Notes: a model not told the origin generated them from the sequence alone. Shown: positions 1 to 64,000, counted from the stretch's first letter. The stretch is DNA of 64,000 nt from Bacteriovoracaceae bacterium (GCA_048270185.1 JBLWTJ010000001.1:160001-224000), one strand, 5' to 3'. A program made the numbers and translations.

Positions 1-2
1 TT

Positions 3-1835
3 GCTAAAACTTATCCTGATGCCGGACTTTCACTTCTAGATTTCAAGCTTTCAGAAAAAAGTAATAATAAGATTATTCACGATTTATACATGTTAAAGCC
101 TCAGATCATTTACGTCGATGTCGATGAAAAAGATCCTAAAGGTAGTGAGCTAGGTATGCTTTTGAAGCGTATCAATTTCTTTAGTCGAATCCCTGTCGTG
201 GCACTTGTTAGCGATTTAAAACAAGTAAAAAAATTAATATCTGTGCACTTTGACTTCGTCTTTGTTAAAGGGGTTGAAACTCATGATGTTGTTCACCACC
301 CGTATAAATTAATTCGGCCAGAGGATGCTGTCTCAGGAGAGTTTGCTCTTGCGAAACTCTCGGATGACATTAAGCTCAAAGAAATTGCTCGTGTAGGTTA
401 CTATGGATTAAGTGCCATGCATGTCGAGGCCAATAATCTCTTAGCTGAAAATACTGTTGTTGAGATTGAGCATGCACTTGATAAAAATCAGATGGCCACA
501 AATTACTTTGTAACACAGAAGATAGGTGACAATAATGTTTACTATGGGGCACGCCACTGGATTGACTTTGAATACCTCTTTGTTGATCCTGCAAAGAAAG
601 AAGATGGAAGCTTTAGCCTAAATGTTGAAGATTTGAATGAAGATACACTTAATAAGAAGGTCATGATTGGCCGGACATTTAAGAAATGGGTCAATGAGAA
701 CTCTTCTTATGGCTCAAGAAAGCGCACAAAACTCTTAATGATCGATCCTGATATGCATTACTTTCAAGAGAGTGATAAGATGATCGATAGTTATGATTTC
801 GTCTTTAGAGTAAATGAGAAATTCAATAATGAATATAAGTATATCGAACGTATTAGGCCTGATATCATTGTTTATTGCTTTCCTGATCCAAATGTTCATG
901 CTCAGGAGGATCAGGTAGAGTTAGAGGAATCCTCAAAAGAAACTAAGACACAAGATTTAAAAAATGAGCTGGATGTCGATACTCTCAAGCAAGAAGCTAA
1001 GAAAATCGAATCAATTGAAGAAGCACAAGATGCTATCTTGAAAGATGCAATCGTACACTTGAAGAATCTTGGCCCAGAGGCTCCATATTTAATTATATTA
1101 AATTGTAAGTCGTACACTTCAATTTCATTTCAACAGAAGTTTAATTATCCTCATGCTCTTGTTAATCCTTCGCGTATTGGAATGAATGTTTTAGCGCAGA
1201 TGATTCATCAGTTAGAAGAAAAGCGTTTAGAAAAAGAAACTTTGGATATTAATTCAAAGATTGCGGCCTTGCGAAAGAAAGACCCAATGAAGTATGCAAA
1301 AGTTAATCGTACTTACTTTGATCCTCCAAAATACTTTGTCAGTAAGAAGTCTGATTTAAGCCACGCTCTGATCTTACGAGACGCAAAGCTTAAGGAAATT
1401 TCTGAATCGATTTGTTTTTTCACAATTGATGAAGAAATTAGTTTTGGAAATTACTACTTAACCCACCCGTTTAATTTTGCCGTTAAAGTAGTTCCTCATG
1501 AAGGTAAGGATAATGTTAAAGAAGGTGATTCTTATAAGTATCTAGGACTTATCCATGCAATTGGTGAAAAAGAAAAGATGCGCCTTAGACAATTTGTAAA
1601 TGATATCTACACTCAGCATAAGAAAGAACAAAGAGAGCAAGAAGAACAGGCCTTAAAAGAGGCCAATGAGAAGTTCTTGCTTGATAAGAAGAAAGCTCAA
1701 GCCGAAGCTCAAACCGAAGCTCAAGAAGACGCCTCTCAAGAAGAGACAAGTACTGAGGGTAATGGGGAAGTAAAGGTTGTAGAAGAGAGCTCCAACGATC
1801 TCGATACCGCTATGAAAGAATTAGATAAAGAGTAG
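3..1835 (+). CDS. Hypothetical protein, 5'-truncated; degenerate receiver-like and PilZ-like segments, acidic C-terminal tail
   Basis: Frame is open from base 3 (AKTYPDAG...) into the 90..1835 ORF. Receiver-like stretches (KLLMIDPD...IRPDIIVY) and a PilZ-like DAKLKEISES segment are weak resemblances only. Confidence 0.6.
   Translation, partial: AKTYPDAGLSLLDFKLSEKSNNKIIHDLYMLKPQIIYVDVDEKDPKGSELGMLLKRINFFSRIPVVALVSDLKQVKKLISVHFDFVFVKGVETHDVVHHPYKLIRPEDAVSGEFALAKLSDDIKLKEIARVGYYGLSAMHVEANNLLAENTVVEIEHALDKNQMATNYFVTQKIGDNNVYYGARHWIDFEYLFVDPAKKEDGSFSLNVEDLNEDTLNKKVMIGRTFKKWVNENSSYGSRKRTKLLMIDPDMHYFQESDKMIDSYDFVFRVNEKFNNEYKYIERIRPDIIVYCFPDPNVHAQEDQVELEESSKETKTQDLKNELDVDTLKQEAKKIESIEEAQDAILKDAIVHLKNLGPEAPYLIILNCKSYTSISFQQKFNYPHALVNPSRIGMNVLAQMIHQLEEKRLEKETLDINSKIAALRKKDPMKYAKVNRTYFDPPKYFVSKKSDLSHALILRDAKLKEISESICFFTIDEEISFGNYYLTHPFNFAVKVVPHEGKDNVKEGDSYKYLGLIHAIGEKEKMRLRQFVNDIYTQHKKEQREQEEQALKEANEKFLLDKKKAQAEAQTEAQEDASQEETSTEGNGEVKVVEESSNDLDTAMKELDKE
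1693..1725 (+). repeat. 12-bp tandem repeat (AAGCTCAARCCG, about 2.7 copies) encoding AQAEAQTEAQE
   Basis: aagctcaagccg aagctcaaaccg aagctcaag read directly. Confidence 0.75.
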
Positions 1836-1947
1836 CTGACCAATACACTCTGACATATCCTATAAAAGATTCTCTTCTTTTCTTACATTCCATGATTTAT
1901 TTTTAAGCCTCCATTAGAATAAAAGAATATTTTCATGGAGGAAGATA

Positions 1948-3159
1948 ATGAGAAATCTAATATTAGCAGTGATGCTATTGGCATCGAGTAATCTACTCGC
2001 ATCTAATTTACAAAACTTCAAAGATAGATTCAGTTTTAAACGTGACGATAACGGAAAGCTTATTGCTGTTCATGACGCTTCGATTAGAACGAAATTTAAG
2101 TTCTCTGAATACGTTGATTTTATCAAGCGCTCTATTCTTAATGAGCAGGCCCTAATGGCCAGTAGTGGTTTAAGCGGTAATTATGAGTCAGATGTTGAAG
2201 GTCTTTTTGTAACAGGAAATGGATTTTTAGGAAATGATTTCCAAACTCAAAAAAATGTAAAAAGAGTTGTTCGTTCGATGCGTGCATTTGAGGGAATTGA
2301 CTTCAATGCTGTTTTTGAAAGTAGTGAATTTAAAGAGCTTATGAATGAATTTGGCTCTAAAATTAAAGAAGCTTTTTACTATATTGATCCTACAATTATT
2401 GCAAAACCAGATATCGCAACTTTCTACTACCGTAAGAATGTTACATATAAAATTGTAAACTGGGCCCTTAATCAAGCTAGAAAACGTATCTCAACTGTTC
2501 CTGCTTTAAATACGGCTTTCTATGTAATTACTGAAGTTGAAAAACTATTTAGAACAAGAAGATTCTATCACCAAAATTTACTTCTTCATTACTTAGAGAC
2601 TGCTAGTCCAGAAGAGTTAGGGCTTACAAAAGAAGAAGCTGATTTAATTTTTTCTTCAATTTATGAGTCAAGAATTGATTGGATTGCATTTTGGGAATCA
2701 AGTAGTGCAAAACTTAGTTGGCCAACTTATGGAACTTCAAAGTTTTATGCAGAATTTAGAATGGCCACAAATCGTCTGAGACAATATAAATCAAAATATA
2801 GTGAAATGGGCGAGAGATTAAATTATGGTTTCCAAGAAGTAACAATCGATGGTGAAAGAGTTATCGTTAATCTTTTTGATGGTAACCATACATTCGATAA
2901 GTCTCCAGCTGTTGCTTACTCATTTGACCGTCCAAGAAGAGTTAAGAGATTAAGAAGTGTATTAACTCTAGCAAGTCTTGGCCTAAGCTTTGTACCACTT
3001 CCTGCAATTATTAAGGATAATGTTGATAGCTTCATTAAGTCATATTACAAAGAACAACAGATCACAGAAGGTGCTCTTGTTGGTTACTTTGAAATGAATG
3101 GGGATCAATTTATGGTTGATGAGATTCGTAAACAGTATTTAAATCCATTTGATTTTTAA
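1948..3159 (+). CDS. Secreted hypothetical protein
   Basis: 403-aa ORF, GGAGG RBS, signal peptide MRNLILAVMLLASSNLLA. Confidence 0.8.
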   Translation: MRNLILAVMLLASSNLLASNLQNFKDRFSFKRDDNGKLIAVHDASIRTKFKFSEYVDFIKRSILNEQALMASSGLSGNYESDVEGLFVTGNGFLGNDFQTQKNVKRVVRSMRAFEGIDFNAVFESSEFKELMNEFGSKIKEAFYYIDPTIIAKPDIATFYYRKNVTYKIVNWALNQARKRISTVPALNTAFYVITEVEKLFRTRRFYHQNLLLHYLETASPEELGLTKEEADLIFSSIYESRIDWIAFWESSSAKLSWPTYGTSKFYAEFRMATNRLRQYKSKYSEMGERLNYGFQEVTIDGERVIVNLFDGNHTFDKSPAVAYSFDRPRRVKRLRSVLTLASLGLSFVPLPAIIKDNVDSFIKSYYKEQQITEGALVGYFEMNGDQFMVDEIRKQYLNPFDF

Positions 3160-3185
3160 AATACAATAAATAAATTGCAATGACT

Positions 3186-3215
3186 AAAAGGCCCTCTAGT
3201 AAGAGGGCCTTTTTT
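3186..3215. terminator. Bidirectional intrinsic terminator
   Basis: AAAAGGCCCTCT-AGTA-AGAGGGCCTTTTTT between convergent genes. Confidence 0.85.
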
Positions 3216-3217
3216 AT

Positions 3218-4726
3218 TTAAGCAGTTCTTTGAATTTTAATCGTTGTGATAATAATAAATATCGTTTGAACGGCAAAGAATGTTCCTAGAAAAATAGCTC
3301 CACCTTGAGAGAAACCGTAAGAATGAAGTCCTGTTGCAAGGATGTAGTTAACACCAAACCATGCCATCATAACACTCATAAACGCTGCTGCAACAAGTGT
3401 GGCAAAGCGAGTATTGGTAATCCAGTTCGTGTACTTTCCATGTAGTATGGCCATATAAATACATAGAACAATCAGTGACCATGTCTCTTTTGGATCCCAT
3501 CCCCAAAAGCGTCCCCAAGAGTAATCGGCCCATACTCCACCAAGGATAATACCTGCTGCAAGCATGATATTACCGTACTTAAGTGTCGTATAGATTAGGT
3601 CATTATAATATGTTTCATCAGCTTCAGAGAAGTCTGAGAAGGCCCTTTTAAAGAGAATCGTATTGGCCAGAATCCAGCTTAGAGCTAGTGCTCCATAGGA
3701 CATGATAATTGTTGTTACGTGTGTACTGAGCCAGAAGTTATCTCTAAGAACTGGTACTAGAGGACTGATTGATGGAGATACCATATTTGTCGCAAACGTA
3801 ATCATCATAAGTGTACAAAGGTTGTAAGCAAGTCCCATGTAGAGATAAGTTTTTTCATTTTTTAAGTGACCTATAATCATTGAGAGAACAAGTCCACCGT
3901 AGCCCGAGAAGATAACTGTCTCATACATATTTGTAATAGGTGCGCGTCCCGAAATATAGACTCTTAATGCAATATAGATTGTTTGAACAATTACAGTAAG
4001 TGTTGCAAGTCCTAGTGAAATATAGAACTTCTTAAAAAGAACTAATGCTGCTAGGCCAATGAGTGTGAGTGCAAAAGCAATACGTGTAAGTTGTAATTTA
4101 TCAAAGAGGAATTCAGTTAAGTACTTATCTCCCTCTATTTGAATATAGTCTGTCTTTGCTTGTTTAAATGCGTCTTGAAATGGAGTTGTTGAAGTTTGCG
4201 CAAACTTATCAACTCTTTCTTTTGTTAGAAAGTCTGTTACGGGAATCCAATTGATTGACTTGTCTGCTTTGAGGGGGATTTGCCAATTGGTTCCACCAGT
4301 AATGTCGTTGTAGAGTTGGATTTTTGAAAGAAGTCGTCCAAGCTCCTTCTTGTAGCCAGATTCTACTTTCTCTTTTTGATAGGCCATGCGGATAGTGACA
4401 TTATGGTCAACTAACTCTTCAAAATCCATTTTCCCATCACTATCAAGTAGGGACTTAGCATCTTTATGCTCGATCTTTGTCGCTATTTTAAAAGGCGTTT
4501 CAAGGCCAAATGCTTTCGCACTTAATAGACAGAATGTTTCGACACTTGTGTGACCTTTTACGGCCTTCTTTCCTGTTAAGTGACCAAGAACTTCCTTCGC
4601 ATGAACTGATAATGGCTTAACTCGTCCATCCTGCCTGATAGGCATTTTTCCCATATCGTTATGGCAGAAATTTAAATTAGCATAAGCACTCGTTACAATA
4701 AAGAAACTTAGAATTAGTTTAAGCAT
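3218..4726 (-). CDS. ccsA: Cytochrome c biogenesis protein CcsA/ResC (system II) with N-terminal periplasmic extension
   Basis: WWD motif WADYSWGRFWGWDPKETW, GRAPITNMYE, WLSTHV, GLHSYG. Start placed at MLKLIL (4726); the ORF track starts at 4750. Confidence 0.9.
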   Translation of the reverse strand: MLKLILSFFIVTSAYANLNFCHNDMGKMPIRQDGRVKPLSVHAKEVLGHLTGKKAVKGHTSVETFCLLSAKAFGLETPFKIATKIEHKDAKSLLDSDGKMDFEELVDHNVTIRMAYQKEKVESGYKKELGRLLSKIQLYNDITGGTNWQIPLKADKSINWIPVTDFLTKERVDKFAQTSTTPFQDAFKQAKTDYIQIEGDKYLTEFLFDKLQLTRIAFALTLIGLAALVLFKKFYISLGLATLTVIVQTIYIALRVYISGRAPITNMYETVIFSGYGGLVLSMIIGHLKNEKTYLYMGLAYNLCTLMMITFATNMVSPSISPLVPVLRDNFWLSTHVTTIIMSYGALALSWILANTILFKRAFSDFSEADETYYNDLIYTTLKYGNIMLAAGIILGGVWADYSWGRFWGWDPKETWSLIVLCIYMAILHGKYTNWITNTRFATLVAAAFMSVMMAWFGVNYILATGLHSYGFSQGGAIFLGTFFAVQTIFIIITTIKIQRTA

Positions 4727-6362
4727 TCTTTTCTCCTGTTGCTCCCTCAAGTCCTAGCATGTCACGTGTTTTCTTTTTTGGCCTATAATTTAGGTAATAG
4801 TGCCAAATACAGCCTAGAACGAGTAGGAGAGATCCTAGATATTTAATCCATCTACCTTGATCAAGATTCACTGAGAATGTTGAGCTGTAGGCACCTGTCT
4901 CAGGGTCCTGAGAATAAGATGCCTGGTAGAAAGTAAACCCATCGTGTTTGAGTGGGTTGTTCATATAGACATGATGTGGTGTTGTTTCACCATTTGTATA
5001 AAGATTAACAAAACTTTCGTAACTTGCCGGTCGATTTGTCCCTGGATCCTTATCCATCTTAAAGCGAGTTAGAGTAAATTCAAAAGGTAGAAGAAATGAT
5101 CTCTTCGTTAAATAGATATTTGTTTTTACCCCGTCAATAAGAACAGAGACAGGCTTATCATCTGTTAGCCAATATTCTTTGTCTCTGACTTGAACTCTTG
5201 CCGCTCTTGTCATTCCTTTGACCAGTCCTCCATTTTGTTGAATTGGAAGTGTCGCAAAAGGAACCATTGTCGGAACAAGATCATCTTCATGCTTTAATAG
5301 TTTTAAGGTAAAGCCCATCCAAGGTAAGTCCATTTCATTCTTTTCATTAAATTTTTGGGATACCCATTTCTTTTCCTGTTTGTCATAAAAAGACGCACTT
5401 TCTCCAAATAGAAAAAGGTGAGCTTTTTCTAGGAATAAGTTTTTAGAAAAGACTCTAATTGGTGCGTTCATGGCCGGTTTTAATTCTTGATCTAAGGCCC
5501 ATGGACTTAAGTCTGGCAGGAATGAGTAGACGCTACCTTGATCCTTGATAACAAAGAATCTTTTGTCTGTTGCAGTTTTCTCGACCTTTATACCCTTGTC
5601 TTCTGTTGTAAAGCATTCTGAAGATCTTGAGTCCCATAGTATTAAGCCGCTTTCGCTTGGTTTACTAAAACATGGAGCTAGTGTCTTTGGAAGATAAGTT
5701 ATGCTTAGAAGGCCCATTGAGAGAGAGGCTTCAAAGTCAAATGCTTCTGGGTGTAGACTTAGAGTGAAGTCTTGGGCGACATTATCATTTGAAATAATGT
5801 AGCTTGATGAGTGAGCATTATCTGAATCTTTATTGTCTTTTGCTGGAAGCCATGTGAGCTTCTTATCGGCAAATGGAATATAGTTTTGAATCTCAACTTC
5901 TTTGTATCGTACGTTGACGTCAGTAGAGAATGCGGCATATGGCAGAGGAAGGATTGCTCTGGTATTTTCTTCCGGACGTGTAATCTCGATTACATCTTCA
6001 TTTAAGACAACTTGTCTCGATGGATTCATCGGGTTTAAGTTAATTGTCCCATCAATACCTGCAATATAAGTTACAAATGAACCAATTCCAATGACGATTA
6101 AACCTGTGTGAATTGTATAGAAACCATAGAGTCTTTTTTTTACTGGAAGTCTAACAAAGGCCGCAAAAAGTATACTTAGTCCCATAAAGAATTGGATGGC
6201 CATAAACCACCACGTTTTATAGATCACACGTGAAACAAAATCAGTACCGTAGTAACTTTCAATAAAAGTCCCCACGACCATGGCCAGTGTAAATAATGAA
6301 ATAATGAAAACTGCAAACTTCATTGAGCCGATCGAACGCTCAAATTTCTTATAATCAATCAT
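4719..6362 (-). CDS. resB: Cytochrome c biogenesis protein ResB/CcsB family
   Basis: N-terminal TMs with GTFIES and a conserved His (IHTG), MNNPLKHDGFTFYQASY, C-terminal TM; adjacent to ccsA. Confidence 0.85.
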   Translation of the reverse strand: MIDYKKFERSIGSMKFAVFIISLFTLAMVVGTFIESYYGTDFVSRVIYKTWWFMAIQFFMGLSILFAAFVRLPVKKRLYGFYTIHTGLIVIGIGSFVTYIAGIDGTINLNPMNPSRQVVLNEDVIEITRPEENTRAILPLPYAAFSTDVNVRYKEVEIQNYIPFADKKLTWLPAKDNKDSDNAHSSSYIISNDNVAQDFTLSLHPEAFDFEASLSMGLLSITYLPKTLAPCFSKPSESGLILWDSRSSECFTTEDKGIKVEKTATDKRFFVIKDQGSVYSFLPDLSPWALDQELKPAMNAPIRVFSKNLFLEKAHLFLFGESASFYDKQEKKWVSQKFNEKNEMDLPWMGFTLKLLKHEDDLVPTMVPFATLPIQQNGGLVKGMTRAARVQVRDKEYWLTDDKPVSVLIDGVKTNIYLTKRSFLLPFEFTLTRFKMDKDPGTNRPASYESFVNLYTNGETTPHHVYMNNPLKHDGFTFYQASYSQDPETGAYSSTFSVNLDQGRWIKYLGSLLLVLGCIWHYYLNYRPKKKTRDMLGLEGATGEKNA

Positions 6363-6457
6363 TGTTAATTTGCCCTTTAGGTTTGTTCAAGTGATAGCAC
6401 ACTCGATAAAGTCAGGCTATGAAATTAACTATTTTTCATGTCAACTCTTTGTAAACT

Positions 6458-7150: not shown

Positions 7151-7244
7151 AATTCATTATTTTATCATAGTTGTTTTAGGCTGGGTACGCTGTAGTCATT
7201 TGAGGACTTAGCTGTTATCTTATTGTTCTATAAATAAGGATAAT

Positions 7245-7859: not shown

Positions 7860-7957
7860 TTGTTAAGCAGTTAATATTATAGAGCTATACGATTAAGAAA
7901 ATTAAGAATTATAAATATCATACAAAATAACTAAAATATAAAGAAAGAGGAATAAAA

Positions 7958-8260: not shown

Positions 8261-8306
8261 GGTCATAACAAAAGTTATATTAAAACTTATTTACTAGGAA
8301 GGAATC

Positions 8307-15134: not shown

Positions 15135-16715
15135 ATGACTTTCACTTCCAACCGATATTTAAGGATTACGGCCACCATTATTGACCTATGTTTATGCCTT
15201 TTTATCAGTTACAACTTATTAAGTAGTAAGGTTATCCTCTCAATTAGTGATGTTCTATTTAGCGATCAAAATGCGACTTTATCAATAAAGCATATTCATG
15301 TTTATCTCATCACTTATTTCTTCTATTGTTTTTATTGTGGCCTATTCTTTAGCATAACACTCGGTCAAGCAGTATGTGGTATTCGTATACAGGCCGGAAG
15401 TTTTATTCAAAAACGACTGGGGGCGATAATGCGTCTTGCCCTCATGCCACTAAGAATACTTTTTGATATCTTTTCAACTGAAGTTGAATCTAGGTGGTCG
15501 TCAAAAATTTGCGCTTCAAGGATAGTCTACCAATCCAAAGTTATCTCTTACTTAATAGCGACAATAATATGCATCATTGCTATTGGGTTAACTCCATTTA
15601 GCGCATTAATGTATAAGCAACAATTTCTTTCCAGTCAGTATTTTGATTTCGGACTTAAAACATTTGTCGAAGGAGAAATAAGTGACTTTGAATCTTTTCA
15701 AGAAATTGGTGCCAAAACACTAGGCTTTTCTAGTTTTACAAACTTATCAGATGGAAGGTTTAGTATTAGGCCAAGTTTTGAAATTCGAAAGGTTGAATCT
15801 AAGACGATATATCGGCCACTAGTTTCCATATGGGATAAACACTTATCGCTTCGTGGAATATTTAAAATATCATCACGATTTGATTTATATTCGATTATCT
15901 CAAAAACCAGAAGTGAGCTTTTCTTTTTTGATCTCTATTACCCTAAGCTGAGTAAAACTCTTGATTTATATAAGAAAGACGATGGTGACATCTTCTATTT
16001 GGATGCAAGGTCTAGTCTTGAGCTTTTTGAATTAGTATCGAATGCTTTCTTAGTTAACTACAAGACAATACCTACATTATTATTGAAAGGTCATTTTCAA
16101 TTCTTGCCATATTTACAATTAAAGCTGGCCTTAGCTGACTTACTTCAAATAACAGATGATAATTATATCGACTTCATCAAAAGTGGAGAGATGATCTTTG
16201 TTCGTAAGAAAGATTATTCTGGTGAAAATATTATCTATCGTGAGACATTCTTTAGCCTTGGTCAACTCAAACCAATTGTCTACTCAAGTATGTGGGATCG
16301 AAATATTGACAATGATAAGGCGCAAAGTGATTTTGCTAACTCACTATTTTTCAAGGCCCGTTGGGGCAAAGAAGTTGATGATCGTTACCAAACATGGGTT
16401 AAAGAAGAATTACTCAACCCTCTTATTAGCTTCGATCTTATTCAGAGCACTGATCAATCAAAAGAGTATCGTCAGAAGTTTGAGAAATACATTGTTAAGT
16501 TCTATCTTGATGATGCACGAAATGCTTTAGAAAGTGGTGAAGGAGAGTATATTAACACTGTTCGCTCTAGTCTTCAGCGATTTAACCTGGTTTTTCAACT
16601 TGCTATGAAGAAAAATGAAACCTTCTATTCAAAGGCGACAATTAAATCTTTAAATGACATCTTACTTGCTCTAAAATTAAAAGATAAGAAATTATTAGAT
16701 AAAGTAAATAAGTAA
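15135..16715 (+). CDS. RDD-family membrane protein with large soluble C-terminal domain
   Basis: RITATIID start, TLGQAVCGIRI, AIMR motifs and several TM helices. Confidence 0.6.
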   Translation: MTFTSNRYLRITATIIDLCLCLFISYNLLSSKVILSISDVLFSDQNATLSIKHIHVYLITYFFYCFYCGLFFSITLGQAVCGIRIQAGSFIQKRLGAIMRLALMPLRILFDIFSTEVESRWSSKICASRIVYQSKVISYLIATIICIIAIGLTPFSALMYKQQFLSSQYFDFGLKTFVEGEISDFESFQEIGAKTLGFSSFTNLSDGRFSIRPSFEIRKVESKTIYRPLVSIWDKHLSLRGIFKISSRFDLYSIISKTRSELFFFDLYYPKLSKTLDLYKKDDGDIFYLDARSSLELFELVSNAFLVNYKTIPTLLLKGHFQFLPYLQLKLALADLLQITDDNYIDFIKSGEMIFVRKKDYSGENIIYRETFFSLGQLKPIVYSSMWDRNIDNDKAQSDFANSLFFKARWGKEVDDRYQTWVKEELLNPLISFDLIQSTDQSKEYRQKFEKYIVKFYLDDARNALESGEGEYINTVRSSLQRFNLVFQLAMKKNETFYSKATIKSLNDILLALKLKDKKLLDKVNK

Positions 16716-16729
16716 AAACTAGGATTATT

Positions 16730-17527
16730 ATGACTCTATGGATGGCAATAGTTTACGGGATTATTCAAGGCCTAACAGAATTTCTACCTGTTTCAAGCTC
16801 TGGTCACCTGGCCCTGCTTCCATTCTTTTATGACTTTAAGGACCCAGGAATTTTCTTTGATCTGGCCATGCACGTCGGAACAGCTCTAGCTGTAGCCATT
16901 TACTTTCATAAAGAAGTACGTCGTATAGGAAAAAATGCAATCTTCTTTGTCATGCCTAATAAGAAATGTGATGATTTCACAAAGAACTTTATGATCGCGA
17001 CATTTTTTACAGGATTCTTTGCTCTACTGCTAAGGCCCGTGGCCGAGGAATATGGACGCAATGAAATCTTTATTGCTTTCAATCTTGCCTTCTTTGGTAT
17101 TCTACTATTTATCTCAGATCGCATTAGTCGAACAGATAAGACAATGGAGGGCTTTAGAGCTTCATCATCAATTGTCATTGGACTTTCTCAGGTTCTAGCA
17201 ATTTTCCCTGGGGTTTCACGCTCTGGGATTACAATTACAAGTGCACGCTTTCTCGGGCTTTCAAAAGAAGATGCTTCTTCTTTTTCATTTCTCTTGTCCC
17301 TTCCACTAATTTTTGCAGCATTCTTTTTAAAGAGTTACGGATTAATTTCTCACCCTAGTGAGATCAAGTTTGAGGTTCTAAATTGTATTGTTGGAGTTGT
17401 CGTCTCTTTTGGAGTTGGCCTTGCAACGATTCATTTCTTTATGAAGCTTATTCGTAAGATCCAATTTGGATACTTCTTAGTTTATCGCCTGATTCTAAGT
17501 GCTTTAGTCTTTTATCTTGTGAAGTGA
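16730..17527 (+). CDS. uppP: Undecaprenyl-diphosphate phosphatase (BacA family)
   Basis: GIIQGLTEFLPVSSSGHL and FPGVSRSGITI. Confidence 0.95.
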   Translation: MTLWMAIVYGIIQGLTEFLPVSSSGHLALLPFFYDFKDPGIFFDLAMHVGTALAVAIYFHKEVRRIGKNAIFFVMPNKKCDDFTKNFMIATFFTGFFALLLRPVAEEYGRNEIFIAFNLAFFGILLFISDRISRTDKTMEGFRASSSIVIGLSQVLAIFPGVSRSGITITSARFLGLSKEDASSFSFLLSLPLIFAAFFLKSYGLISHPSEIKFEVLNCIVGVVVSFGVGLATIHFFMKLIRKIQFGYFLVYRLILSALVFYLVK

Positions 17528-18481
17528 TTCTTCAATAGTAATAACAGGACTGTGGCCAAAATCATTCTTAGCAGCATTATGTTTAAAGTAGTGAGATGTT
17601 CCCATTTGTAGGGCCACAAATCGCGTCATTGGCGGTTGGCCATCGAATTTTCCAAGCAGACGATAGAACGCTTCAAAGATTGCACCTATAATATAGACCA
17701 TTCTTAATGAGACCTTCTTTCTTAGGGGGTTAACTCCCTTTGCTTCAAGGATATCATTGATGAAGTCCCATAATTTGACCGGTCTTTCTTGGCCAATAAA
17801 GTAGGCCTTACCGCTATTCTTAGCACCAGTACGTAGCTCGTTAAATGCTTTTATATGGGCAAGGGATGCGTTTTCAACATAGTTAATATCAACTATATTC
17901 TCTCCCGTACCAATGATTTTTAGACGGCCAGATTTGGCCCGGGCCACAAGAGTAGGGATGATATTCTGATCTCTTTGGCCATATATGAGGTGTGGCCTAA
18001 TGGATGTTGTAAAGAGAGTACTATCATTAGCATTTAATACATAAGCTTCTGCTATTGATTTGGTACGTGCATAATCATTAAGAAAAACATTTGGATAAGG
18101 GAGGGATTCGTCTCCGTCACAGATCTCTTCCTTTCCAAAAACGACACTTGGGGTACTAGTGTAGATGAGATACTTGATGCCAGCTTTTCTCACTTGATCA
18201 ACTATATTCCTCGTTCCTAGAATATTGATATCCTCGAAGTCTTTTTTGCGTCCCCACATTCCGACTTTGCCGGCCACATGAAATACAGCTTCAATACCTT
18301 CAAGTGCACCAGCTACGTCACTAGCAATTGTTAAGTTACCTCGGCGTGTTTCAATACCAAGCTCTTTTACTTCATCTGTTTCTGAGCGAGAAAAATTGAC
18401 CACTTCATGGCCTTCTTCTAAAAGATCTTTAGCTATATGATATCCAAGAAAACCTGTTGCTCCTGTAACTAGTATTTTCAT
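17504..18481 (-). CDS. oleD: 2-alkyl-3-oxoalkanoate reductase OleD (3-beta-HSD-like extended SDR)
   Basis: GATGFLG, HVAGKVGMWG, YARTK; last gene of the oleABC run. Confidence 0.88.
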   Translation of the reverse strand: MKILVTGATGFLGYHIAKDLLEEGHEVVNFSRSETDEVKELGIETRRGNLTIASDVAGALEGIEAVFHVAGKVGMWGRKKDFEDINILGTRNIVDQVRKAGIKYLIYTSTPSVVFGKEEICDGDESLPYPNVFLNDYARTKSIAEAYVLNANDSTLFTTSIRPHLIYGQRDQNIIPTLVARAKSGRLKIIGTGENIVDINYVENASLAHIKAFNELRTGAKNSGKAYFIGQERPVKLWDFINDILEAKGVNPLRKKVSLRMVYIIGAIFEAFYRLLGKFDGQPPMTRFVALQMGTSHYFKHNAAKNDFGHSPVITIEESLHKIKD

Positions 18482-18483
18482 AT

Positions 18484-54248: not shown

Positions 54249-56051
54249 ATGCAAAACCTTAAGAAGATATCGACAGTGATGTGGATGCTATTCACACTAA
54301 CTCTTTTAAACCTAACATCAGCTCAGGCATCATATGATGTAGCGATTAAGCGTGAAGTTCTAGAGGCCAAGCGTGTATCTCGTAAAGTAATAGGTCGCTT
54401 GAGGCAATTATCTGGTCACAGTAATCAAACTGAGCGCCAGAGGGATTTCGAACAAGCGTACTTCGTTTATCGTAAGATCAATTCTACTATAAGAAAGTTT
54501 CATAAACATGTCCTAAAAAAGGATCGTCTTGGAACAGATGCCAATGGTGAATACAGTGAAGACCAAGTTATAAAGGATCTATCTGAATATATAAATGAGG
54601 TTGCAAATGGCCTTGTCGCATTTGCTGAACTTGATGGATATAAGAAGCTACCATCTTCAAGACGCTTAATGGTGTCTCAAATTGCCGTGACAATAGATAC
54701 TTTAGTTGAGTACCTGAGAGAGGATGATATTATTATTTCTCTACCAAAAGAATTTGATTCATTAGCAAGTACATACCGTCGCCAAGAAGAATTCTTAGAA
54801 AATAAGCAAGAAATTTTAGGTGATTACTTTGATGCTAAAGATGCCTTTGAAGAGGGAATTGAGCAATTACGTGAATTTGTAAAAAAATATATAAAGCGCA
54901 ATCACGGTCCTAATAAGGACGATCATCGCATATATACTAGCGAGTCTTATGACTATATCAATTATCGTCGTCTAGCGCGCAAGCTTGTCAAAGAACTTGA
55001 AGACTTCGACGTTAACTCAACAAAGACTTTTGCAAGCATCTCAGAAAAAGTGTCTAAAATGCAACACTTAGTAAACTTTTCACGAACTAATACAAAAAAT
55101 GCCAAAGTCCTTCTAAATCATGTTAACAAGCTTTTCAATAAGTTTTCTTTAGAGCTGTCTAAAGTTAATTCAAAGATCGTGCACAAGCCGATCCAAGCGA
55201 CTTTAGGTGTTAAAGAAGTTGAGTTTGACTATTACCGTGCAACTCAAGTGTGTTCAATGCTTGGTGGACCGGGAGATATTCTTTTAAGACGAGCTATTGA
55301 AACTGATATTGACCTCTTTGAAGACTTTAGCCCAAGAACTTCAGGGGCCATTAAGTTGGTTGAATTTTTAAAGTTTAACGATCGTCAGCTAGATTTTAGA
55401 CACGCAGAAGTTATTACTGAAATTGAGCGTGATACTAATATTTCGACAGTAGGCTTTTACCCATTAAGTTTTAACTGGGGAAAAGATGAAGAAGATAAGA
55501 TGCCTCCTTTTATTGAAATATCAAAGGGCTATCGCAAATGTCACTCAGATGGTTGTGACACTTATAGCGACTACCGTACTAATTTTGCTTGGCTAAGTAT
55601 TAATGAAAAGACGGCCAAGAAGGTAACAAGAAAGAAGGAGAAGGCCTTAAGCAAGGTAGCAAAGAAGGAAAAATACTCGAAACTAGGTGTTTGTTCTGAC
55701 TTCGTTAACTGGGCCTTTGGCAATGTTATTTCTTCTAATTGGAATCGTATTCCAATACTTAGAAATCTTATTCAGATTATTTACCCTCCAGAAGGGCTTC
55801 AGACTCCAGATAATCTCTACGAGTCTTATAAAACAAATGTGGTGTGTGAAGTAGAAAATAGAAAACTTACATATCCTGAATATGTGAATGCTCACACTTT
55901 AAAAGAGCAAGTGCTTAGAGATCTTAATTCTAAAAATGTTGAGATCAGCACACATGCTAAGAATACTTTAAATAAGTTAATTAAAGAAAATATTATGGAT
56001 GAAGAATTAAACCTAAACTACGACGTAATCAATTTTAAAACTTATAAATAA
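54249..56051 (+). CDS. Secreted protein: helical N-terminal region plus permuted papain-like (NlpC/P60, YiiX/YaeF-type) domain
   Basis: Signal peptide ending AQA; GPGDILL ... RHAEVI ... VCSDFVNWAF ... TPDNL with His before Cys. Confidence 0.65.
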   Translation: MQNLKKISTVMWMLFTLTLLNLTSAQASYDVAIKREVLEAKRVSRKVIGRLRQLSGHSNQTERQRDFEQAYFVYRKINSTIRKFHKHVLKKDRLGTDANGEYSEDQVIKDLSEYINEVANGLVAFAELDGYKKLPSSRRLMVSQIAVTIDTLVEYLREDDIIISLPKEFDSLASTYRRQEEFLENKQEILGDYFDAKDAFEEGIEQLREFVKKYIKRNHGPNKDDHRIYTSESYDYINYRRLARKLVKELEDFDVNSTKTFASISEKVSKMQHLVNFSRTNTKNAKVLLNHVNKLFNKFSLELSKVNSKIVHKPIQATLGVKEVEFDYYRATQVCSMLGGPGDILLRRAIETDIDLFEDFSPRTSGAIKLVEFLKFNDRQLDFRHAEVITEIERDTNISTVGFYPLSFNWGKDEEDKMPPFIEISKGYRKCHSDGCDTYSDYRTNFAWLSINEKTAKKVTRKKEKALSKVAKKEKYSKLGVCSDFVNWAFGNVISSNWNRIPILRNLIQIIYPPEGLQTPDNLYESYKTNVVCEVENRKLTYPEYVNAHTLKEQVLRDLNSKNVEISTHAKNTLNKLIKENIMDEELNLNYDVINFKTYK

Positions 56052-56075
56052 GTTTTAGAGAGAACAAAAGGGAGA

Positions 56076-58496
56076 ATGACAATGAGTAAAAAGAGAAAAC
56101 TATTAATCGCAGCTTTCTTGATGACACAAGCTCCTGCAGTACTTGCAGACTACTACCGTTCATCAATTGAGGGTATTTCTTTAGATGGTACGTACACGCC
56201 AGAAAACCTAAGTAATATCTCGAAAACTGTATGTAAGAAAGTTTATGACGATCCTCAAATGGATAAAGAGCATACTCAAATGTGTGAGCGTGGTGTTCAA
56301 TCAGCTCAACGTATGGCCGCTGTATACGCTGCTGGTGAAGGGACACACCTTGGTTGTGTTGACGGTTACCAACAAGGTGTTTACCGTGGATACAACACAA
56401 CATCTAATCCATCAATTGATGTTTTAAGAGAAGAGCAAAGAGCACTTAAAGGTGTAACTCTTGAAAATGCAGTTGCTCGCGGTAAGGTAAAAGCTTCTAA
56501 AGATTCACGTCACTCAACTGAAGGTGAAATTATTAAGCGCTTTAGAGATAATATTAGATCATCAAGTAATGATTCAATCCAAGCTCCAAGTGATGATTAC
56601 TCTGATATCCTAAAAGTACCTCGTTTTGAAGGTTTCTCAGATGGATATGCTGCAGATGGAAAAGGTGGATCATTCAGTGATGTTATCAACGCTGGTTGGG
56701 TTTCTTCAAGCTCATCAATTAATAAGAGAATCCAAGCTCGTGCAGTAGCAAGACAGTTTGGAATTAACTCAAACCTTTCAGATAAGTGTTCATCAACACC
56801 TATTCTATTTAATAAAGGTCTTCACACAGTATCAATGTGGTCACTATTCTCAGCTTATGGAGAGTATAACTTCAAAGATTACGGTTGGAAGTCAACTTCA
56901 CGTGCATGGACAAAGTTCCAAACATCTGAAGAGCAAGAAGCAATCGCTTTTAGAAATATCCAGGATGTTAAAGAGCAAAAGCAAGTTCAAGATGGTTACC
57001 ACAAGAAAAGTGTAGCAGTTGAGATTGATGAGATCGATCCTGCAACTGGGCAACCAACAGGTAAGAAAGTTGTAAAAAGAGATGCAAACGGAAATATCGT
57101 ATACACTCAAGTTGATGATCTTTCGAGACCAAAATTTAAAACGGTATACGTAACTGTACCTGGTAAATCAGCAAAAGATCTTAAAGCAGTATATGAAGAC
57201 GCATTCTCTGAGTCATACAGAAATCTTGCAAAAGAGCACTTCGGTAAAGCATTCATATCGACGCACACTATGGCCCGTCGTATGGGGGAGGACGCTGGTA
57301 AAGCAGTTGGTCTTATCGTAGCAAGAGACGCAGCTAAGCAACAAGCTTATGATGATGCTTACAAAGCACAATCTGCTGTTTCATTTGCAAAAGAGTACGA
57401 AAACCTATTTAAGACTTCATGGTTTAACAACTTTAACTACTTTGCAAATAACCCAATGGTTGAAATCACTGAGTTTGAACTTGTTGGTGATGGAAATGGT
57501 ATCTTTACTCGTGGTGAAGAACTTAAAGCTAGACTTGGTCTAAACAATCTAGGTCTTAAGTCTGGTCAAGTAAAAGTATCTCTTGATTCTGCTTCATTTG
57601 AAACAGGTAGCTCAAGATCTGACTATGTACAAGCTCCAGCTTCTCTTGGGTTTGACTATGTTTCAAATAAATCACTTGGAAAGCTTAAGGATAGCTTAAA
57701 TGTATTCGATAGAGCAAACCTTGTAATTTCAATTGATGGAACAGATATTAAGAAAGTATACGCTCTTAAAAGCTCTGCTGATAAGACTGTTACGATTCAA
57801 GACGTTGCTCAAATTGAAAAAACAAATGTTGAAGTTACTTCTACGATTGCAGGTGATGCAACAGTTTTCGTAAATGTTCACAACCCATCAAACACAGAAA
57901 CATCATCTTCTGTTGATATTGTTGTAACAACGAACCATGGTCTAACTTTTAGAACAAGTGCAACTGCTCTTAAAGCTGGTGAGTCAAAGAGAATTCCAGT
58001 ACGTGTAACTGGTCTTGATCCACTAGATATCATTAAGAAAGGTGTTGGTGGGACTGCTACTTCATCTGTCGGTGGAAGAGTAATGAACACAGTTAACACT
58101 GGTACTGCAACTGTAAACAGAGCTAAAGAAATCGCTAACTACTTCAATGAAGTACTTATCGGTGGAACTAATAACTTTGGTGACGAAGATAGAGACGGTA
58201 GAACACAAACTTTGATTGATCTAATTCTACGTGAGACAAGCGATATTGCTGATAAGCACTTTGATTGGGATGATTCAAGCGCAGTATCAAGAACAATTCT
58301 TGGTAATATGATGAGAGTTTACAAGGCATCATCTGCAGCAGGAAGAATGACTGACGAAGCTAGAAATATCTACGCTGATCTTGCTCAAGATTTAGAAAAA
58401 GAATACAAAGATGTTGGTGGATACAAAGATTACGTAAAAAACCTAGAAGTATTCAATAAGAAGCTTAAGACTCGTAAGAAGAAAGATCGTAAATAA
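56076..58496 (+). CDS. Large secreted hypothetical protein (helical N-half, Ig/CARDB-like beta domains)
   Basis: AGGGAG RBS, signal peptide ending VLA, LNNLG...VKVSL and VHNPS...VDIVV beta-sandwich patterns, strongly biased codon use. Confidence 0.75.
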   Translation: MTMSKKRKLLIAAFLMTQAPAVLADYYRSSIEGISLDGTYTPENLSNISKTVCKKVYDDPQMDKEHTQMCERGVQSAQRMAAVYAAGEGTHLGCVDGYQQGVYRGYNTTSNPSIDVLREEQRALKGVTLENAVARGKVKASKDSRHSTEGEIIKRFRDNIRSSSNDSIQAPSDDYSDILKVPRFEGFSDGYAADGKGGSFSDVINAGWVSSSSSINKRIQARAVARQFGINSNLSDKCSSTPILFNKGLHTVSMWSLFSAYGEYNFKDYGWKSTSRAWTKFQTSEEQEAIAFRNIQDVKEQKQVQDGYHKKSVAVEIDEIDPATGQPTGKKVVKRDANGNIVYTQVDDLSRPKFKTVYVTVPGKSAKDLKAVYEDAFSESYRNLAKEHFGKAFISTHTMARRMGEDAGKAVGLIVARDAAKQQAYDDAYKAQSAVSFAKEYENLFKTSWFNNFNYFANNPMVEITEFELVGDGNGIFTRGEELKARLGLNNLGLKSGQVKVSLDSASFETGSSRSDYVQAPASLGFDYVSNKSLGKLKDSLNVFDRANLVISIDGTDIKKVYALKSSADKTVTIQDVAQIEKTNVEVTSTIAGDATVFVNVHNPSNTETSSSVDIVVTTNHGLTFRTSATALKAGESKRIPVRVTGLDPLDIIKKGVGGTATSSVGGRVMNTVNTGTATVNRAKEIANYFNEVLIGGTNNFGDEDRDGRTQTLIDLILRETSDIADKHFDWDDSSAVSRTILGNMMRVYKASSAAGRMTDEARNIYADLAQDLEKEYKDVGGYKDYVKNLEVFNKKLKTRKKKDRK

Positions 58497-58513
58497 TAAG
58501 ATCGATAAAAAAG

Positions 58514-58541
58514 AAAGGCCCGCATCTTGCGGGCCTTTTTT
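58514..58541. terminator. Bidirectional intrinsic terminator
   Basis: AAAGGCCCGCA-TCT-TGCGGGCCTTTTTT between convergent genes. Confidence 0.88.
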
Positions 58542-58567
58542 ATTTGGTAATAATTTCTTTTAAAGAA

Positions 58568-59461
58568 TTATTGAGCGTCAACTACTGTTTGACCTGGCTT
58601 GAACCAACATAGTGGTCTTAGACCAGTTTCGAAGTTTTCACTTCTGTTACAAGTACCGATGTTAGCATCGTCCTTTGAAACATCTGTGTAAGCGTCAACT
58701 GTACAAAGTGCACCTTGGAAGTAAGTATCAAGACGACATTGTGGAGCTGGGTGATTGTGATTAGTAGTTGTAACAACTGCTGGATCTGGAGTATCAAACT
58801 TAAGCTCAGTAGTCATGCTTCTTAGCGCTCTAAAAAGGTTAGCTAGTGACATACCTGCCATTGAACCTCTTAAACACATTGCATATTCATTTTCGTTAGA
58901 GAAGTTCTTAGCACATGCTTCAGTAGCAACAGCTGGAACTTCAACTTCACTCATGATTGAAGTGTTGTCATCGTTTTCCATGAATTTTCTTAGACACTTA
59001 GAAGTACCGAAGTAATCAGCTTGACCTTCGTTAGATGCCCATGAAGTACCACCAAACCAGCTAGACTTCTTTGGAGCTCCACCTAGGTGGTGACCAAGTT
59101 CGTGACAAACAACAGTAGCAAATCCGTCTCTAGTGATTGTTTCGTGTCTTGCAAGACCACCAAACATACTAACACGCCAAGTGTTTCCAGACTGTTGAGC
59201 GTAAGCGTTAACAGTTCCGTCTTCCCACTTTCTTTCGATTACTAAAGTTTTACCTCTTTCTGCGATGATTGGAGCATAGATCGCTTCAATTTTATCAATA
59301 ATGTCGTTGAACTCAGTTTCTGAAATTGAGTTAACACTTTTTACATTTGATGGAATCCAAAGATTATTATCTTCAACGATTCCTGTCTTACCGTGCTCGT
59401 CACATGCGAATGAAAAAGTCGATACACATGCAAGTAGTAGAGCTAAAATTCCTTTTTTCAA
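58568..59461 (-). CDS. Secreted zinc metalloprotease (M48-like), Cys-rich
   Basis: VNAYA, CHELGHH, NEGQADYF, HPAPQCR. TTG start at 59461 follows GGAGG and gives signal peptide KKGILALLLACVSTFSFA. Confidence 0.8.
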   Translation of the reverse strand: MKKGILALLLACVSTFSFACDEHGKTGIVEDNNLWIPSNVKSVNSISETEFNDIIDKIEAIYAPIIAERGKTLVIERKWEDGTVNAYAQQSGNTWRVSMFGGLARHETITRDGFATVVCHELGHHLGGAPKKSSWFGGTSWASNEGQADYFGTSKCLRKFMENDDNTSIMSEVEVPAVATEACAKNFSNENEYAMCLRGSMAGMSLANLFRALRSMTTELKFDTPDPAVVTTTNHNHPAPQCRLDTYFQGALCTVDAYTDVSKDDANIGTCNRSENFETGLRPLCWFKPGQTVVDAQ

Positions 59462-59699
59462 ATCAGTCCTCCCTGAAAAAGTATATTGTTGATTTGTTTT
59501 CACTTTTATATTTCCCTTTGTCGGTTTTATGATTTTTCTATTTTGAACACGATATGTCTAAAGCTTTTTTACTCAAACACATAGATGTAAGTTTTTGTTG
59601 GTTTCTGGATGCTGTGTTGTATTAAATAGCTGATATAATGTTTGTGTTAAATTTTTGTTAATTACTTATAACTAATTAAAATTATGGTAGTATTTGGTC

Positions 59700-60182
59700 A
59701 TGAGTAAGAAATTTCTATTACTATTCCTTTGTTCAATAAATCTTGTTTTCGCTCAGGTTGATGACCCGATTATGAAGCAATTTCAGCAAATGCGTGATGA
59801 AATGATGAAGCAAATGCAGGCAACTGATAGCTTTGATGCTGAAATTCAGAAAATGTTTCAACGCATGCAAAAGATGGGACAGATACAAGGGCTACCTGAT
59901 CGCTTCAATAAGACTGTATCAATGGTAGATTATTATTGGAAAGACTCTCAGACTCTAGTTCTGAAAGTTTCCAAAGATGATGAAATCAACGTTGAAGTAA
60001 AGGATGGAATGGTCGTTCTATCTGGGAGTAGGGTATCAAAAAGTCAAAATTCTTTTTCTAAATCCAGCTTTTCTCAATCAATTGAATTACGTCCAGCTCT
60101 TGATTCAACAAAAGTAGATATGTCGATGAAAGATGGGAATATTGTTTTGTCTTTCAAGTTAAAGTCAAATCGACAAATCTAA
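59700..60182 (+). CDS. Hsp20/alpha-crystallin-like protein with signal peptide
   Basis: INVEVKDGMVVLSG, FSQSIEL, MKDGNIVLSF; N-terminal MSKKFLLLFLCSINLVFA. Confidence 0.7.
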   Translation: MSKKFLLLFLCSINLVFAQVDDPIMKQFQQMRDEMMKQMQATDSFDAEIQKMFQRMQKMGQIQGLPDRFNKTVSMVDYYWKDSQTLVLKVSKDDEINVEVKDGMVVLSGSRVSKSQNSFSKSSFSQSIELRPALDSTKVDMSMKDGNIVLSFKLKSNRQI

Positions 60183-62847: not shown

Positions 62848-63723
62848 ATGAAATTAAGTTCTGTTTTTAAAAGTATTTTAACACTTGTCGTAGTTGTTTC
62901 TAGTACACATGCTATTGGTTCTCAAGTGATTCAAGATGATATTAAAGCGATATCATTTGATTTAAAATCAGAGCAGATTTTTACAATGAAAAATTATGCA
63001 AAGGGTGAATATAAGGAATTAGCGTTCACTCGTATTGAAAGACCAAATTTATCTGTAAGCTTGCAAAGATCGGACAAGAAAGCAGCTGAAGTATATCAGG
63101 TTGATATTGATGAGTCCGCACTAACTCTTAAGAAAGAATTATTAAATATCGAACTTAAAAAGAATTCAATTGCAAATATCGGTATTGAAAAAAATCAAAT
63201 TTTAGCAAAATTACAATCTAATAAAGTTATGCTTTCTAAAGTTGACACGGCAAAAATTCTTAAAAAGGCCATGGTTTCTAATTTAAATCAAATTGTTTCT
63301 AAGATTGGCTTCAAAGATCAAACGACTCTTAAGTATGAAATCAAGAGCGCAAGTTTAAGATGCCCAGAGCTATCGGGAAGAATTTTAAACTGTCGTGCAA
63401 AATATGAAATATCAGCAACGATTAAAAATGTTAAAAAGAAAGTAAGCTCTAATCTAATAGAGATTCTTGAAAATTCAAAGGGTAACTTCAATACTCTTGG
63501 TTCTGAAATTGAGATTAATACTTATATCTCAGAGCTTCGTTCAATTAATAAAAAGCTCAACACTCTTGCGGAAAGTGATAGTGCAAAAGCTAATCTAAAA
63601 CAAATCTACGGTATTAAGAAAGATGTTCAATCTGAGATTCTAGACTCATACCAATACACAGCTGTAGCAGGGTCAAGTGCTGTTAAATTTATCGATGGAC
63701 TTCGCCAGAAAGTTTTAAACTAA
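62848..63723 (+). CDS. Secreted hypothetical protein
   Basis: GAGGG RBS, signal peptide ending THA. Confidence 0.7.
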   Translation: MKLSSVFKSILTLVVVVSSTHAIGSQVIQDDIKAISFDLKSEQIFTMKNYAKGEYKELAFTRIERPNLSVSLQRSDKKAAEVYQVDIDESALTLKKELLNIELKKNSIANIGIEKNQILAKLQSNKVMLSKVDTAKILKKAMVSNLNQIVSKIGFKDQTTLKYEIKSASLRCPELSGRILNCRAKYEISATIKNVKKKVSSNLIEILENSKGNFNTLGSEIEINTYISELRSINKKLNTLAESDSAKANLKQIYGIKKDVQSEILDSYQYTAVAGSSAVKFIDGLRQKVLN

Positions 63724-63998
63724 TAGGTAATTTCTTTAAATTTAATAAAGAGGTTAATGACTTCATTTAAAACTTCATTATGAAGACTTGTGAACTTAGC
63801 TTCATAAGCTTTTGCCCCTTCGAATGTCGCACGATTTTCTTTATTTTTAACAATCAGTTCAAGTGCATCATTTGTGAAAGTGAGCTTGATATCTAAGTTG
63901 TAAATAATAACCCTTAAAATGGGATTATCTTCCCATTGGCCATAGAAGATTTTGTAACTAAGGATAGTATTTTCATGATCGATCTTTGATAGTGATTT
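63720..63998 (-). CDS. Partial hypothetical protein (5' end beyond window)
   Basis: Minus frame open from 63998 (KSLSKIDHEN...) to TAG at 63722-63720; absent from the ORF track. Confidence 0.6.
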   Translation of the reverse strand, partial: KSLSKIDHENTILSYKIFYGQWEDNPILRVIIYNLDIKLTFTNDALELIVKNKENRATFEGAKAYEAKFTSLHNEVLNEVINLFIKFKEITY

Positions 63999-64000
63999 CT

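Follow-up and report, generated by a model that had tools for sequence, protein, structure and literature searches.

A graded family trait: the excess of GGCC in a Bacteriovoracaceae genome, and a proposed methylation-coupled mismatch correction

The palindrome GGCC is strongly over-represented in a stretch of 64,000 nucleotides from a predatory marine bacterium of the Bacteriovoracaceae (Halobacteriovorax; GCA_048270185.1, JBLWTJ010000001.1:160001-224000; this whole stretch is called the window below). The excess is real, and it is a trait of the whole source genome, G000, and of its family. It appears to be written by a directional process acting at the DNA level, neither by codon usage nor by conservation of single sites, and this process is likely a mismatch correction coupled to methylation, a reading to which we give a probability of roughly 0.55. 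Two components of the drive are observed in sister species: the two outer C:G pairs of GGCC hardly ever change by C-to-T (G-to-A) transition, and words one base off are converted to GGCC 4-14 times faster than in controls. Bacteria normally avoid short palindromes and, to our knowledge, palindromes driven upward are rare, the cases known to us being CCWGG in Escherichia coli and HIP1 (GCGATCGC) in cyanobacteria. The mechanism of HIP1 is still debated. Our literature search found no published description of a GGCC excess in the Halobacteriovorax family.

The proposed chain leads from a methyltransferase to a mark and from the mark to correction. A conserved orphan C5-cytosine methyltransferase would methylate GGCC, probably on its outer C, and a mismatch correction coupled to this mark would resolve mismatches within a site or near-site toward GGCC. 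Such a correction would be akin to the Dcm-Vsr system or to the ratchet proposed by Elhai for HIP1, carried out by an enzyme that is no Vsr homologue, in a family whose MutL is stripped of its nuclease motifs. Drive strength varies between close species, and this gives the graded excess seen across the family.

Source genome G000 is a 3.35-Mb assembly in 30 contigs (95.9% complete), in which the window occupies C1:160001-224000. Expected counts were derived from base composition (zero order), from dinucleotides (first-order Markov) and from trinucleotides (second order). The window (36.6% GC) holds 317 GGCC, one per 202 bp, where these models predict 71.2, 74.7 and 140.2 sites, respectively, giving observed/expected (O/E) ratios of 4.45, 4.24 and 2.26; the over-representation first noticed by eye is thus borne out along the whole window. 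By second-order ratio GGCC ranks first of the 256 tetramers, and the other palindromes of the same composition remain scarce (37 CCGG, 63 GCGC, 40 CGCG). It also ranks first genome-wide, with 12,131 sites, one per 276 bp, and O/E ratios of 3.23, 3.15 and 1.97.

Such an excess might be a by-product of coding, through amino-acid composition, the choice of Ala, Gly or Pro codons, codon-pair or transfer RNA (tRNA) effects, or repeat copies. Indeed, 7,389 of the 11,043 coding GGCC of G000 (67%) fall in the frame nnG|GCC, and the sole periodicity found in GGCC distances is a strong 3-bp codon periodicity. An excess nevertheless persists under synonymous shuffling. The 52 open reading frames (ORFs) lying wholly inside the window contain 283 GGCC, against 98.2 +/- 7.2 (maximum 119) in 200 synonymous shuffles within each gene, a ratio of 2.88 (z 25.5). 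For the whole genome (2,966 genes from our own ORF calls, 10 shuffles keeping the protein and the codon usage of each gene) the overall ratio is 2.48 (z 169), with 1.71 in the GGC|C frame, 1.77 in nGG|CCn and 3.16 in nnG|GCC. Two positions are free in this last frame, for which 3.16 comes close to 1.77 squared. Sites in the window are distributed in the same three frames as 72, 32 and 179, with 34 more being intergenic or at gene edges; GGCC does often arise as GCC after a G-ending codon, as the original prediction had remarked, yet all frames are enriched. Intergenic DNA is in fact the most GGCC-enriched compartment of G000 (O/E 4.46 genome-wide). Intergenic stretches of up to 600 bp (212 kb, 32.6% GC) carry 802 sites, with O/E ratios of 5.33, 3.07 and 1.78 at zero, first and second order. 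With ratios staying well above 1 under both the shuffle and the trinucleotide controls, an artefact of codon, amino-acid or trinucleotide composition is refuted, and the coding explanation looks extremely improbable.

The unit of the signal is the tetramer itself. Its flanks show only a weak preference for A at position -2 and for T at the mirror position (the second base after GGCC), and the counts of NGGCCN hexamers are near compositional expectation, which rules out a longer motif or a repeat element.

The nature of the drive is best seen in the gains and losses of two sister species, G011 and G004, which share 92.1% identity in a collinear block of 61 kb and were polarised by parsimony with the outgroup G009 (86-87% identical). 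The same changes in context-matched non-GGCC contexts served as controls. Outer C>T losses occurred at 2 of 672 GGCC positions versus 18 of 695 control positions (ratio 0.11, p 4e-4), a decrease of about 10-fold found in both sister lineages, whereas outer C>A (10/672 versus 7/695) and outer C>G (8/672 versus 4/695) were not reduced. For inner C>T the figures were 9/667 versus 38/1384 (ratio 0.49, p 0.058). Gains were raised 4.3-fold for GGC[T]>C (14/222 versus 31/2114, p 4e-5), 5-fold for GGC[A]>C (9/343 versus 10/1894, p 9e-4) and 14-fold for GG[G]C>C (6/253 versus 3/1767, p 2e-4); for GG[T]C>C the 1.4-fold increase (9/244 versus 74/2852) was not significant. Four-fold degenerate sites give the same picture at the outer position. 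Transition losses were absent there (0 of 239 at GGCC versus 19 of 322 in controls, p 2e-5), transversion losses were comparable (13/239 versus 10/322, not significant), and gains were raised both by transition (4 of 11 near-sites versus 40 of 1524, p 1.7e-4) and by transversion (9 of 177 near-sites versus 19 of 2716, p 2.5e-5).

Whole GGCC sites are lost at an ordinary rate, 8.2% in G011 and 14.7% in G004, as compared with medians over all tetramers of 10.7% and 14.4%. In the block, G011 gained 34 sites and lost 15, and G004 gained 16 and lost 27, leaving 227 and 196 sites in these two species and 149 in G009. The turnover of GGCC is therefore ordinary, and the excess stems from a high birth rate together with near-absent outer transitions. 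Drive strength differs between species only 8% apart. Ordinary site loss, unsuppressed transversion losses and missing transition losses, taken together, argue for a mutational or repair drive and not for selection on sites. Accordingly, of the methylation-directed mutation or repair bias suggested by the original prediction, the directional part is supported by all reading frames, by intergenic DNA and by these rates of gain and loss; the link to methylation is circumstantial.

The composition of G000 itself agrees with such a process. Of the words one base away, GGCT/AGCC show the strongest depletion (second-order O/E 0.41/0.55 in the window, 0.58 in the genome); GGTC/GACC, also named as candidates at the outset, stand at 0.90. 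Among Ala GCN codons, those following a G (n=12,010) end in C, T, A and G with frequencies of.612,.076,.250 and.062, versus.138,.390,.381 and.090 after another base (n=48,370). On the other side of the palindrome, the four-fold base before GCC is G in.501 and A in.071 of cases, compared with.063 and.299 before other codons starting with G. The C/T (G/A) ratio at the outer position is thus raised 23-33-fold and the C/A ratio about 7-fold. For the inner C (Gly GGN before C) the rise in C/T is 3.2-fold, while other codon families shift the opposite way.

These data also bear on the possibility that natural selection keeps GGCC as a chromosomal mark, be it a strand signal, a regulatory methylation or a site of nucleoid or histone binding. 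Several observations would fit. Intergenic enrichment is near-uniform over the three alternative bases T, A and G, at 3.1-4.3-fold for inner as well as outer positions, and the gains from transversion neighbours are raised too. One site per 276 bp is near the density of GATC in E. coli, and a MutL devoid of nuclease motifs, with neither MutH nor Dam found, may need another nicking signal. In the available text on Synechocystis, GGCC is frequent, methylated by an orphan enzyme and associated with regulatory effects (PMC6604393, PMC6560206). Selection should however suppress both types of loss, and at four-fold sites only the transitions are missing; whole sites disappear like the median tetramer. 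A pure site-selection model, in which the alternatives keep their proportions, predicts T at.176 of the four-fold sites instead of the.076 observed, so that T falls about 2.3-fold below its proportional share. The spacing is slightly clumped, not regular (nearest-neighbour coefficient of variation 1.135, with 2.9% of the gaps longer than 1 kb versus 2.2% under a geometric distribution), and near-random densities occur in close relatives that share this methyltransferase and MutL (O/E 1.29 in G007). The functional chromosomal mark that had been envisaged as well finds little support in this irregular spacing and ordinary loss, and we regard selection as an unlikely explanation.

A purely chemical or mutational explanation would be that a modified or bound outer C resists deamination, so that GGCC outlasts other GC-rich words under the strong GC-to-AT mutation pressure of an AT-rich genome. 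The 10-fold decrease in outer C>T fits this, as it includes the G004 lineage where gains are not raised, and the inner C shows a decrease to 0.49-fold. The 4-14-fold faster creation of GGCC from its neighbours is not explained in this way. Moreover, C5 methylation is known to raise deamination-driven C>T changes, and the sole cytosine methyltransferase found in G000 is of the C5 type, whose mark should act the wrong way. This explanation therefore appears highly unlikely.

The candidate for the first step of the preferred, methylation-coupled reading is the single C5-cytosine methyltransferase of G000 (C1:546351-547538, 396 amino acids; PF00145, E 1.7e-71; TIGR00675, 206 bits). Its sequence carries FSGAGG, PPCQGFS, ENV and QxRxR-like motifs, which we take to be the catalytic motifs of C5-methyltransferases, and these are intact. 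Its closest named homologues belong to Halobacteriovorax species. The gene is flanked by mnmA and a Ppx/GppA-like lipoprotein gene, no restriction gene adjoining, and in 5 of 9 loci checked the methyltransferase gene likewise adjoins mnmA with no restriction gene between. Full-length relatives, 48-89% identical, are present in all 36 family genomes sampled, and distant copies in 2 of 24 genomes outside; O/E ratios of at least 2 are reached in 27/36 and 2/24, respectively, relatives not being independent samples. A Pfam search of G000 for N6_N4 and D12 methyltransferases found none, which speaks against an enzyme of the kind that methylates GGCC in cyanobacteria. The RE_HaeIII and RE_NgoPII families were likewise absent from the G000 search, a little informative result given that they matched no control genome either. 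When compared by phmmer with the M.HaeIII structures 1dct and 3ubt, only the catalytic parts align (residues 21-198 and 305-361).

In the available text of a study of Bacteriovorax sp. ICPB 3264 (PMC11789641; preprint PMC10634947), one sentence reports 5-methylcytosine (5mC), detected by enzymatic methyl sequencing (EM-seq), "in a CpGGCC context", which its authors ascribe to a restriction-modification system. This context would agree with the outer C, the position of strongest effect in the substitution data. By default, the caller named in that study is restricted to CpG positions, so that a methylated outer C in GGCC would be expected to appear exactly as GGCCG/CGGCC. ICPB 3264 belongs to the same bacterial class as G000 and its 5mC context contains GGCC; it is of another genus, and the available text holds no word-abundance analysis and omits the exact motif and the methylated base (PMC11789641).

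Several points weigh against this methylation-coupled reading. Intact reading frames of the methyltransferase are also found in the low-excess relatives G007, G013 and G027 (O/E 1.29, 1.61 and 1.61), hence the enzyme is not sufficient for the excess. Its target-recognition region (residues 190-310), searched alone, matches no PDB sequence at E<=1, M.HaeIII included. As to the correcting enzyme, Vsr (PF03852) is present in only 2 of the 36 family genomes; it was not found in G000, where a tblastn search with the Vsr of the relative G018 gave only chance matches. Searches of G000 for DUF559, MutH and SRA-domain proteins found none, and a search for T:G glycosylases returned only ordinary Nth, MutY and Ung. 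SRA-domain readers of 5mC were likewise found in 0 of 41 genomes. A repair specific for T:G would in any case leave the raised transversion gains unaccounted for, and the near-uniform intergenic enrichment mentioned above looks selection-like. The substitution test concerns sister species and not G000, over 61 kb only and by parsimony. A general AT-to-GC shift occurred in the G011 lineage, for which the context-matched controls allow. The G004 lineage combines suppressed transition losses with gains that are not raised, so the two components can be uncoupled. Finally, GGCC rises from origin to terminus, in genes and in spacers, a trend that the drive does not account for. O/E goes from 2.4-2.9 near the origin (dnaA at C4:176699-177190, with a GC-skew switch) to 4.2-4.65 near the terminus (skew switch at about 320 kb on C1), as followed over contigs C1-C4. 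Over the 1.45-Mb arm of C1, genes drop in density from 5.0 to 2.6 GGCC per kb (Spearman -0.23, p 3e-17) and intergenic DNA in O/E from about 6.5 to 4.3. G015, sampled in 21 20-kb pieces, points the same way without significance (Spearman 0.23, p 0.31).

The mismatch repair background is unusual in this family. The sole MutL of G000 (C1:1345808-1347472, + strand) lacks the DQHAxxExxxxE and CPHGRP nuclease motifs, and both are absent from all 32 full-length MutL proteins of the family (loci L137-L186; another two are truncated by contig ends, and no match came from two genomes). In other families of the phylum, 14 of 16 MutL carry both motifs, the exceptions being G037 and G041. G041 belongs to family f6, where MutH (PF02976) is present in 3 of 3 genomes, alongside a motif-less MutL in the one examined. 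MutH was found in 0 of the 36 relatives from the G000 family and not in G000 either, and the search of G000 found no Dam-type methyltransferase (PF02086); MutS is present in G000 and in all 24 family genomes searched. A MutL without nuclease motifs, in the absence of MutH and Dam, makes a methylation-guided correction plausible. Either nicking is performed by another enzyme, or long-patch repair works differently in this family. Our literature search found no paper on this MutL feature in the Halobacteriovorax family, and its family-wide occurrence without MutH raises the question of how the new strand gets nicked. One speculative and distinctly unlikely answer is that 5mC on GGCC, written by the orphan methyltransferase and read by a putative nickase, replaces the usual strand mark and directs MutS-MutL. 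The excess would then be a ratchet-like by-product, and the GGCC-poor phage-like contigs described below a footprint of counter-selection, comparable to the rarity of GATC in some coliphages.

The excess is a graded trait of the family. Sixty relatives were sampled (20-420 kb each), 36 from the same family (f1) and 24 from other families. Within the family the median O/E is 2.65 (range 1.29-5.07; first-order median 2.17), versus 1.14 (range 0.20-2.19; first-order median 1.02) in the other families, where 0 of 24 genomes reach a first-order O/E of 1.5. Within the genus alone, values run from 3.6-5.0 (G011, G010) down to 1.29 in G007, whose sample of 179 kb is consistent over its nine contigs (each 1.0-1.6). 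A specificity switch in the GGCC-poor relatives was considered and set aside, as a scan of their palindromes showed no other one enriched. Context-dependent C>T rates gave no usable indication of 5mC hot spots, codon effects being dominant. G037, with a 41%-identical methyltransferase and a GGCC O/E of 0.20, proved uninformative, since its depletion extends to all CpG- and GC-rich palindromes. This 0.9-Mb genome of the same order (28.5% GC) has O/E ratios of 0.04 for CGCG and 0.14 for ACGT, and a short MutL (449 amino acids) devoid of nuclease motifs. G018, assigned to this AT-rich family, shows 56-64% GC in all three of its samples and a GGCC O/E of 1.36.

One comparable known system is the Dcm-Vsr very-short-patch repair of E. 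coli. Work of 1992 by Bhagwat and McClelland and by Merkl and colleagues is said to have found CCWGG over-represented, and CTWGG/CCWAG under-represented, in that species. Both cases combine a C5 methyltransferase without linked restriction enzyme, an over-represented palindrome with a depleted C-to-T neighbour, and a bias at the level of mismatch correction; in G018 the methyltransferase homologue even lies directly beside vsr. They differ in that no Vsr homologue is found in G000 and in 34 of the 36 family genomes, in the size of the excess (3-5-fold here versus about 1.3-fold in E. coli), and in that transversion neighbours are converted too. GGCC is here a putative target of the methyltransferase.

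HIP1 resembles GGCC in being a palindrome spread through genes and spacers, in its conserved orphan methyltransferases and in its strain-variable abundance. In the model of Elhai (2015), the closest one for a methylation-guided correction of this kind, a mismatch-repair ratchet depends on GmC, errors that create a site being methylated and so preserved (PMC4390886). Raised gains of every mutation type are predicted by this model, as seen in the sister species. Unlike GGCC, HIP1 is an 8-bp word in another phylum; the available texts give it a 15-300-fold excess (PMC5861425) and a quasi-periodic distribution (PMC13756078), as opposed to a 4-bp word at 3-5-fold with irregular spacing. Rates of gain and loss are measured directly here. 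The same word is met again in Synechocystis 6803, where according to the available texts the orphan M.Ssp6803II makes GGm4CC and GGCC occurs every 185 bp (PMC6604393, PMC6560206, PMC11662147). An orphan methyltransferase, a high density and GGCC-free stretches marking foreign DNA are shared. M.Ssp6803II however makes N4-methylcytosine on the inner C, whereas G000 has only a C5 enzyme, and a rough estimate puts the Synechocystis excess below 2-fold. The Anabaena counterpart for GGCC, Alr1052, is described as a MethyltransfD12 member in Pfam (PMC4390886, available text). The Dam-MutH system, lastly, has in common with the present family a MutL without endonuclease motifs, the presence of MutS and one site per about 250-280 bp; it differs by its MutH and Dam-type enzyme, and the word would here be GGCC carrying 5mC.

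Throughout a family of predators that can be cultured, a 4-bp word stands at 3-5-fold excess, with data that separate a mutational drive from selection on sites. Because close species differ in their gains and losses of GGCC, the rates are directly measurable and comparison could reveal the gene responsible. If the drive is a methylation-coupled repair acting without Vsr, a mismatch enzyme yet to be identified is indicated. In addition, GGCC density provides a sharp marker of native versus foreign DNA in the genomes and metagenome bins of this family.

The window exceeds the genome mean, which is explained by its distance of only 100-160 kb from the terminus. The features concerned are the following.
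1..64000, no strand: whole window; GGCC per 4 kb: 21, 25, 21, 19, 33, 22, 16, 22, 20, 24, 23, 18, 25, 14, 4, 10
1..3000, no strand: first hand-counted stretch; 15 GGCC, 2 CCGG, 4 GCGC
3001..6000, no strand: second hand-counted stretch; 14 GGCC, 3 CCGG, 2 GCGC
3186..3213, + strand: intrinsic-terminator-like hairpin, a 12-pair stem followed by a T run, with GGCC in both arms
16001..20000, no strand: richest 4-kb bin of the window; 33 GGCC
56001..60000, no strand: GGCC-poor stretch; 4 sites in 4 kb, GC unchanged (about 0.36-0.38)

The early hand counts over the first two stretches were exact on recount, as was the scarcity of CCGG and GCGC. The original prediction had also placed GGCC in several terminator stems. 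Such hairpins carry it in 5 of 19 cases within 1-20000, the convincing example at 3186..3213 sitting between the convergent ORFs 1948..3159 (+) and 3218..4750 (-). The GGCC-poor stretch is spanned by the ORFs 56076..58496 (+, 806 amino acids) and 58568..59503 (-, 311 amino acids), which match no Pfam family. This DNA may be younger, recently acquired or faster-evolving.

The methyltransferase also has a relative in a cassette. This cassette, in G018, comprises an ORF of 376 amino acids, then a methyltransferase copy (54% identical, with the target-recognition region conserved as well), then Vsr directly, with an integrase gene adjoining. The ORF and its diverged relative in G000 are located as follows.
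G018, L086:11799-12929, no strand stated: 376-amino-acid cassette ORF, in the cassette with methyltransferase and Vsr
G000, C1:1115708-1116613, - strand: diverged 301-amino-acid relative of the cassette ORF, unlinked to the methyltransferase

The 376-amino-acid product is a putative nuclease; it has no match in Pfam, NCBIfam, PADLOC or the PDB sequences. In G025 and G002, cassette-type relatives are found no more than 500 bp from extra copies of the methyltransferase, and the long forms of the family (372-383 amino acids) stand beside such copies. The short form (301-314 amino acids; loci L207 and L208 belong to this protein family) is unlinked and was found only in G000, G002, G004, G008, G009 and G011. 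Since it is missing from other high-GGCC genomes, it is not a general cause of the excess. A candidate PD...ExK motif is altered in the 301-amino-acid protein, whose AlphaFold model has a mean predicted local distance difference test (pLDDT) of 56 and gave nothing by Foldseek against the PDB at E<=0.001. This protein family may be a relic of a restriction enzyme.

Two further observations concern the contigs of the assembly. Nineteen of them are phage-like (C6, C7, C8, C10-C12, C14-C16, C18-C20, C23-C28 and C30; 5-15 kb each, 147 kb in total, 34-37% GC), with 7 GGCC and 0 CCGG, against a prediction of about 160 each from base composition. Their genes include a tRNA nucleotidyltransferase (phrog_2244, E 2e-116), three radical-SAM genes (phrog_1802), a polynucleotide-kinase-like gene and a PBECR5 nuclease. 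They have no near relative in the phage collection, and a simple scan found no CRISPR array linking them to the host. They probably represent a large phage binned with G000 and purged of both words. The second observation is that the 5.9-kb contig C22 has 92% identity with the end region of C1 (C1:1768385-1774251), and that the last 86 bases of C9 match the C1 end. This repeated or strain-variant region has a low GGCC O/E (1.1-1.7).

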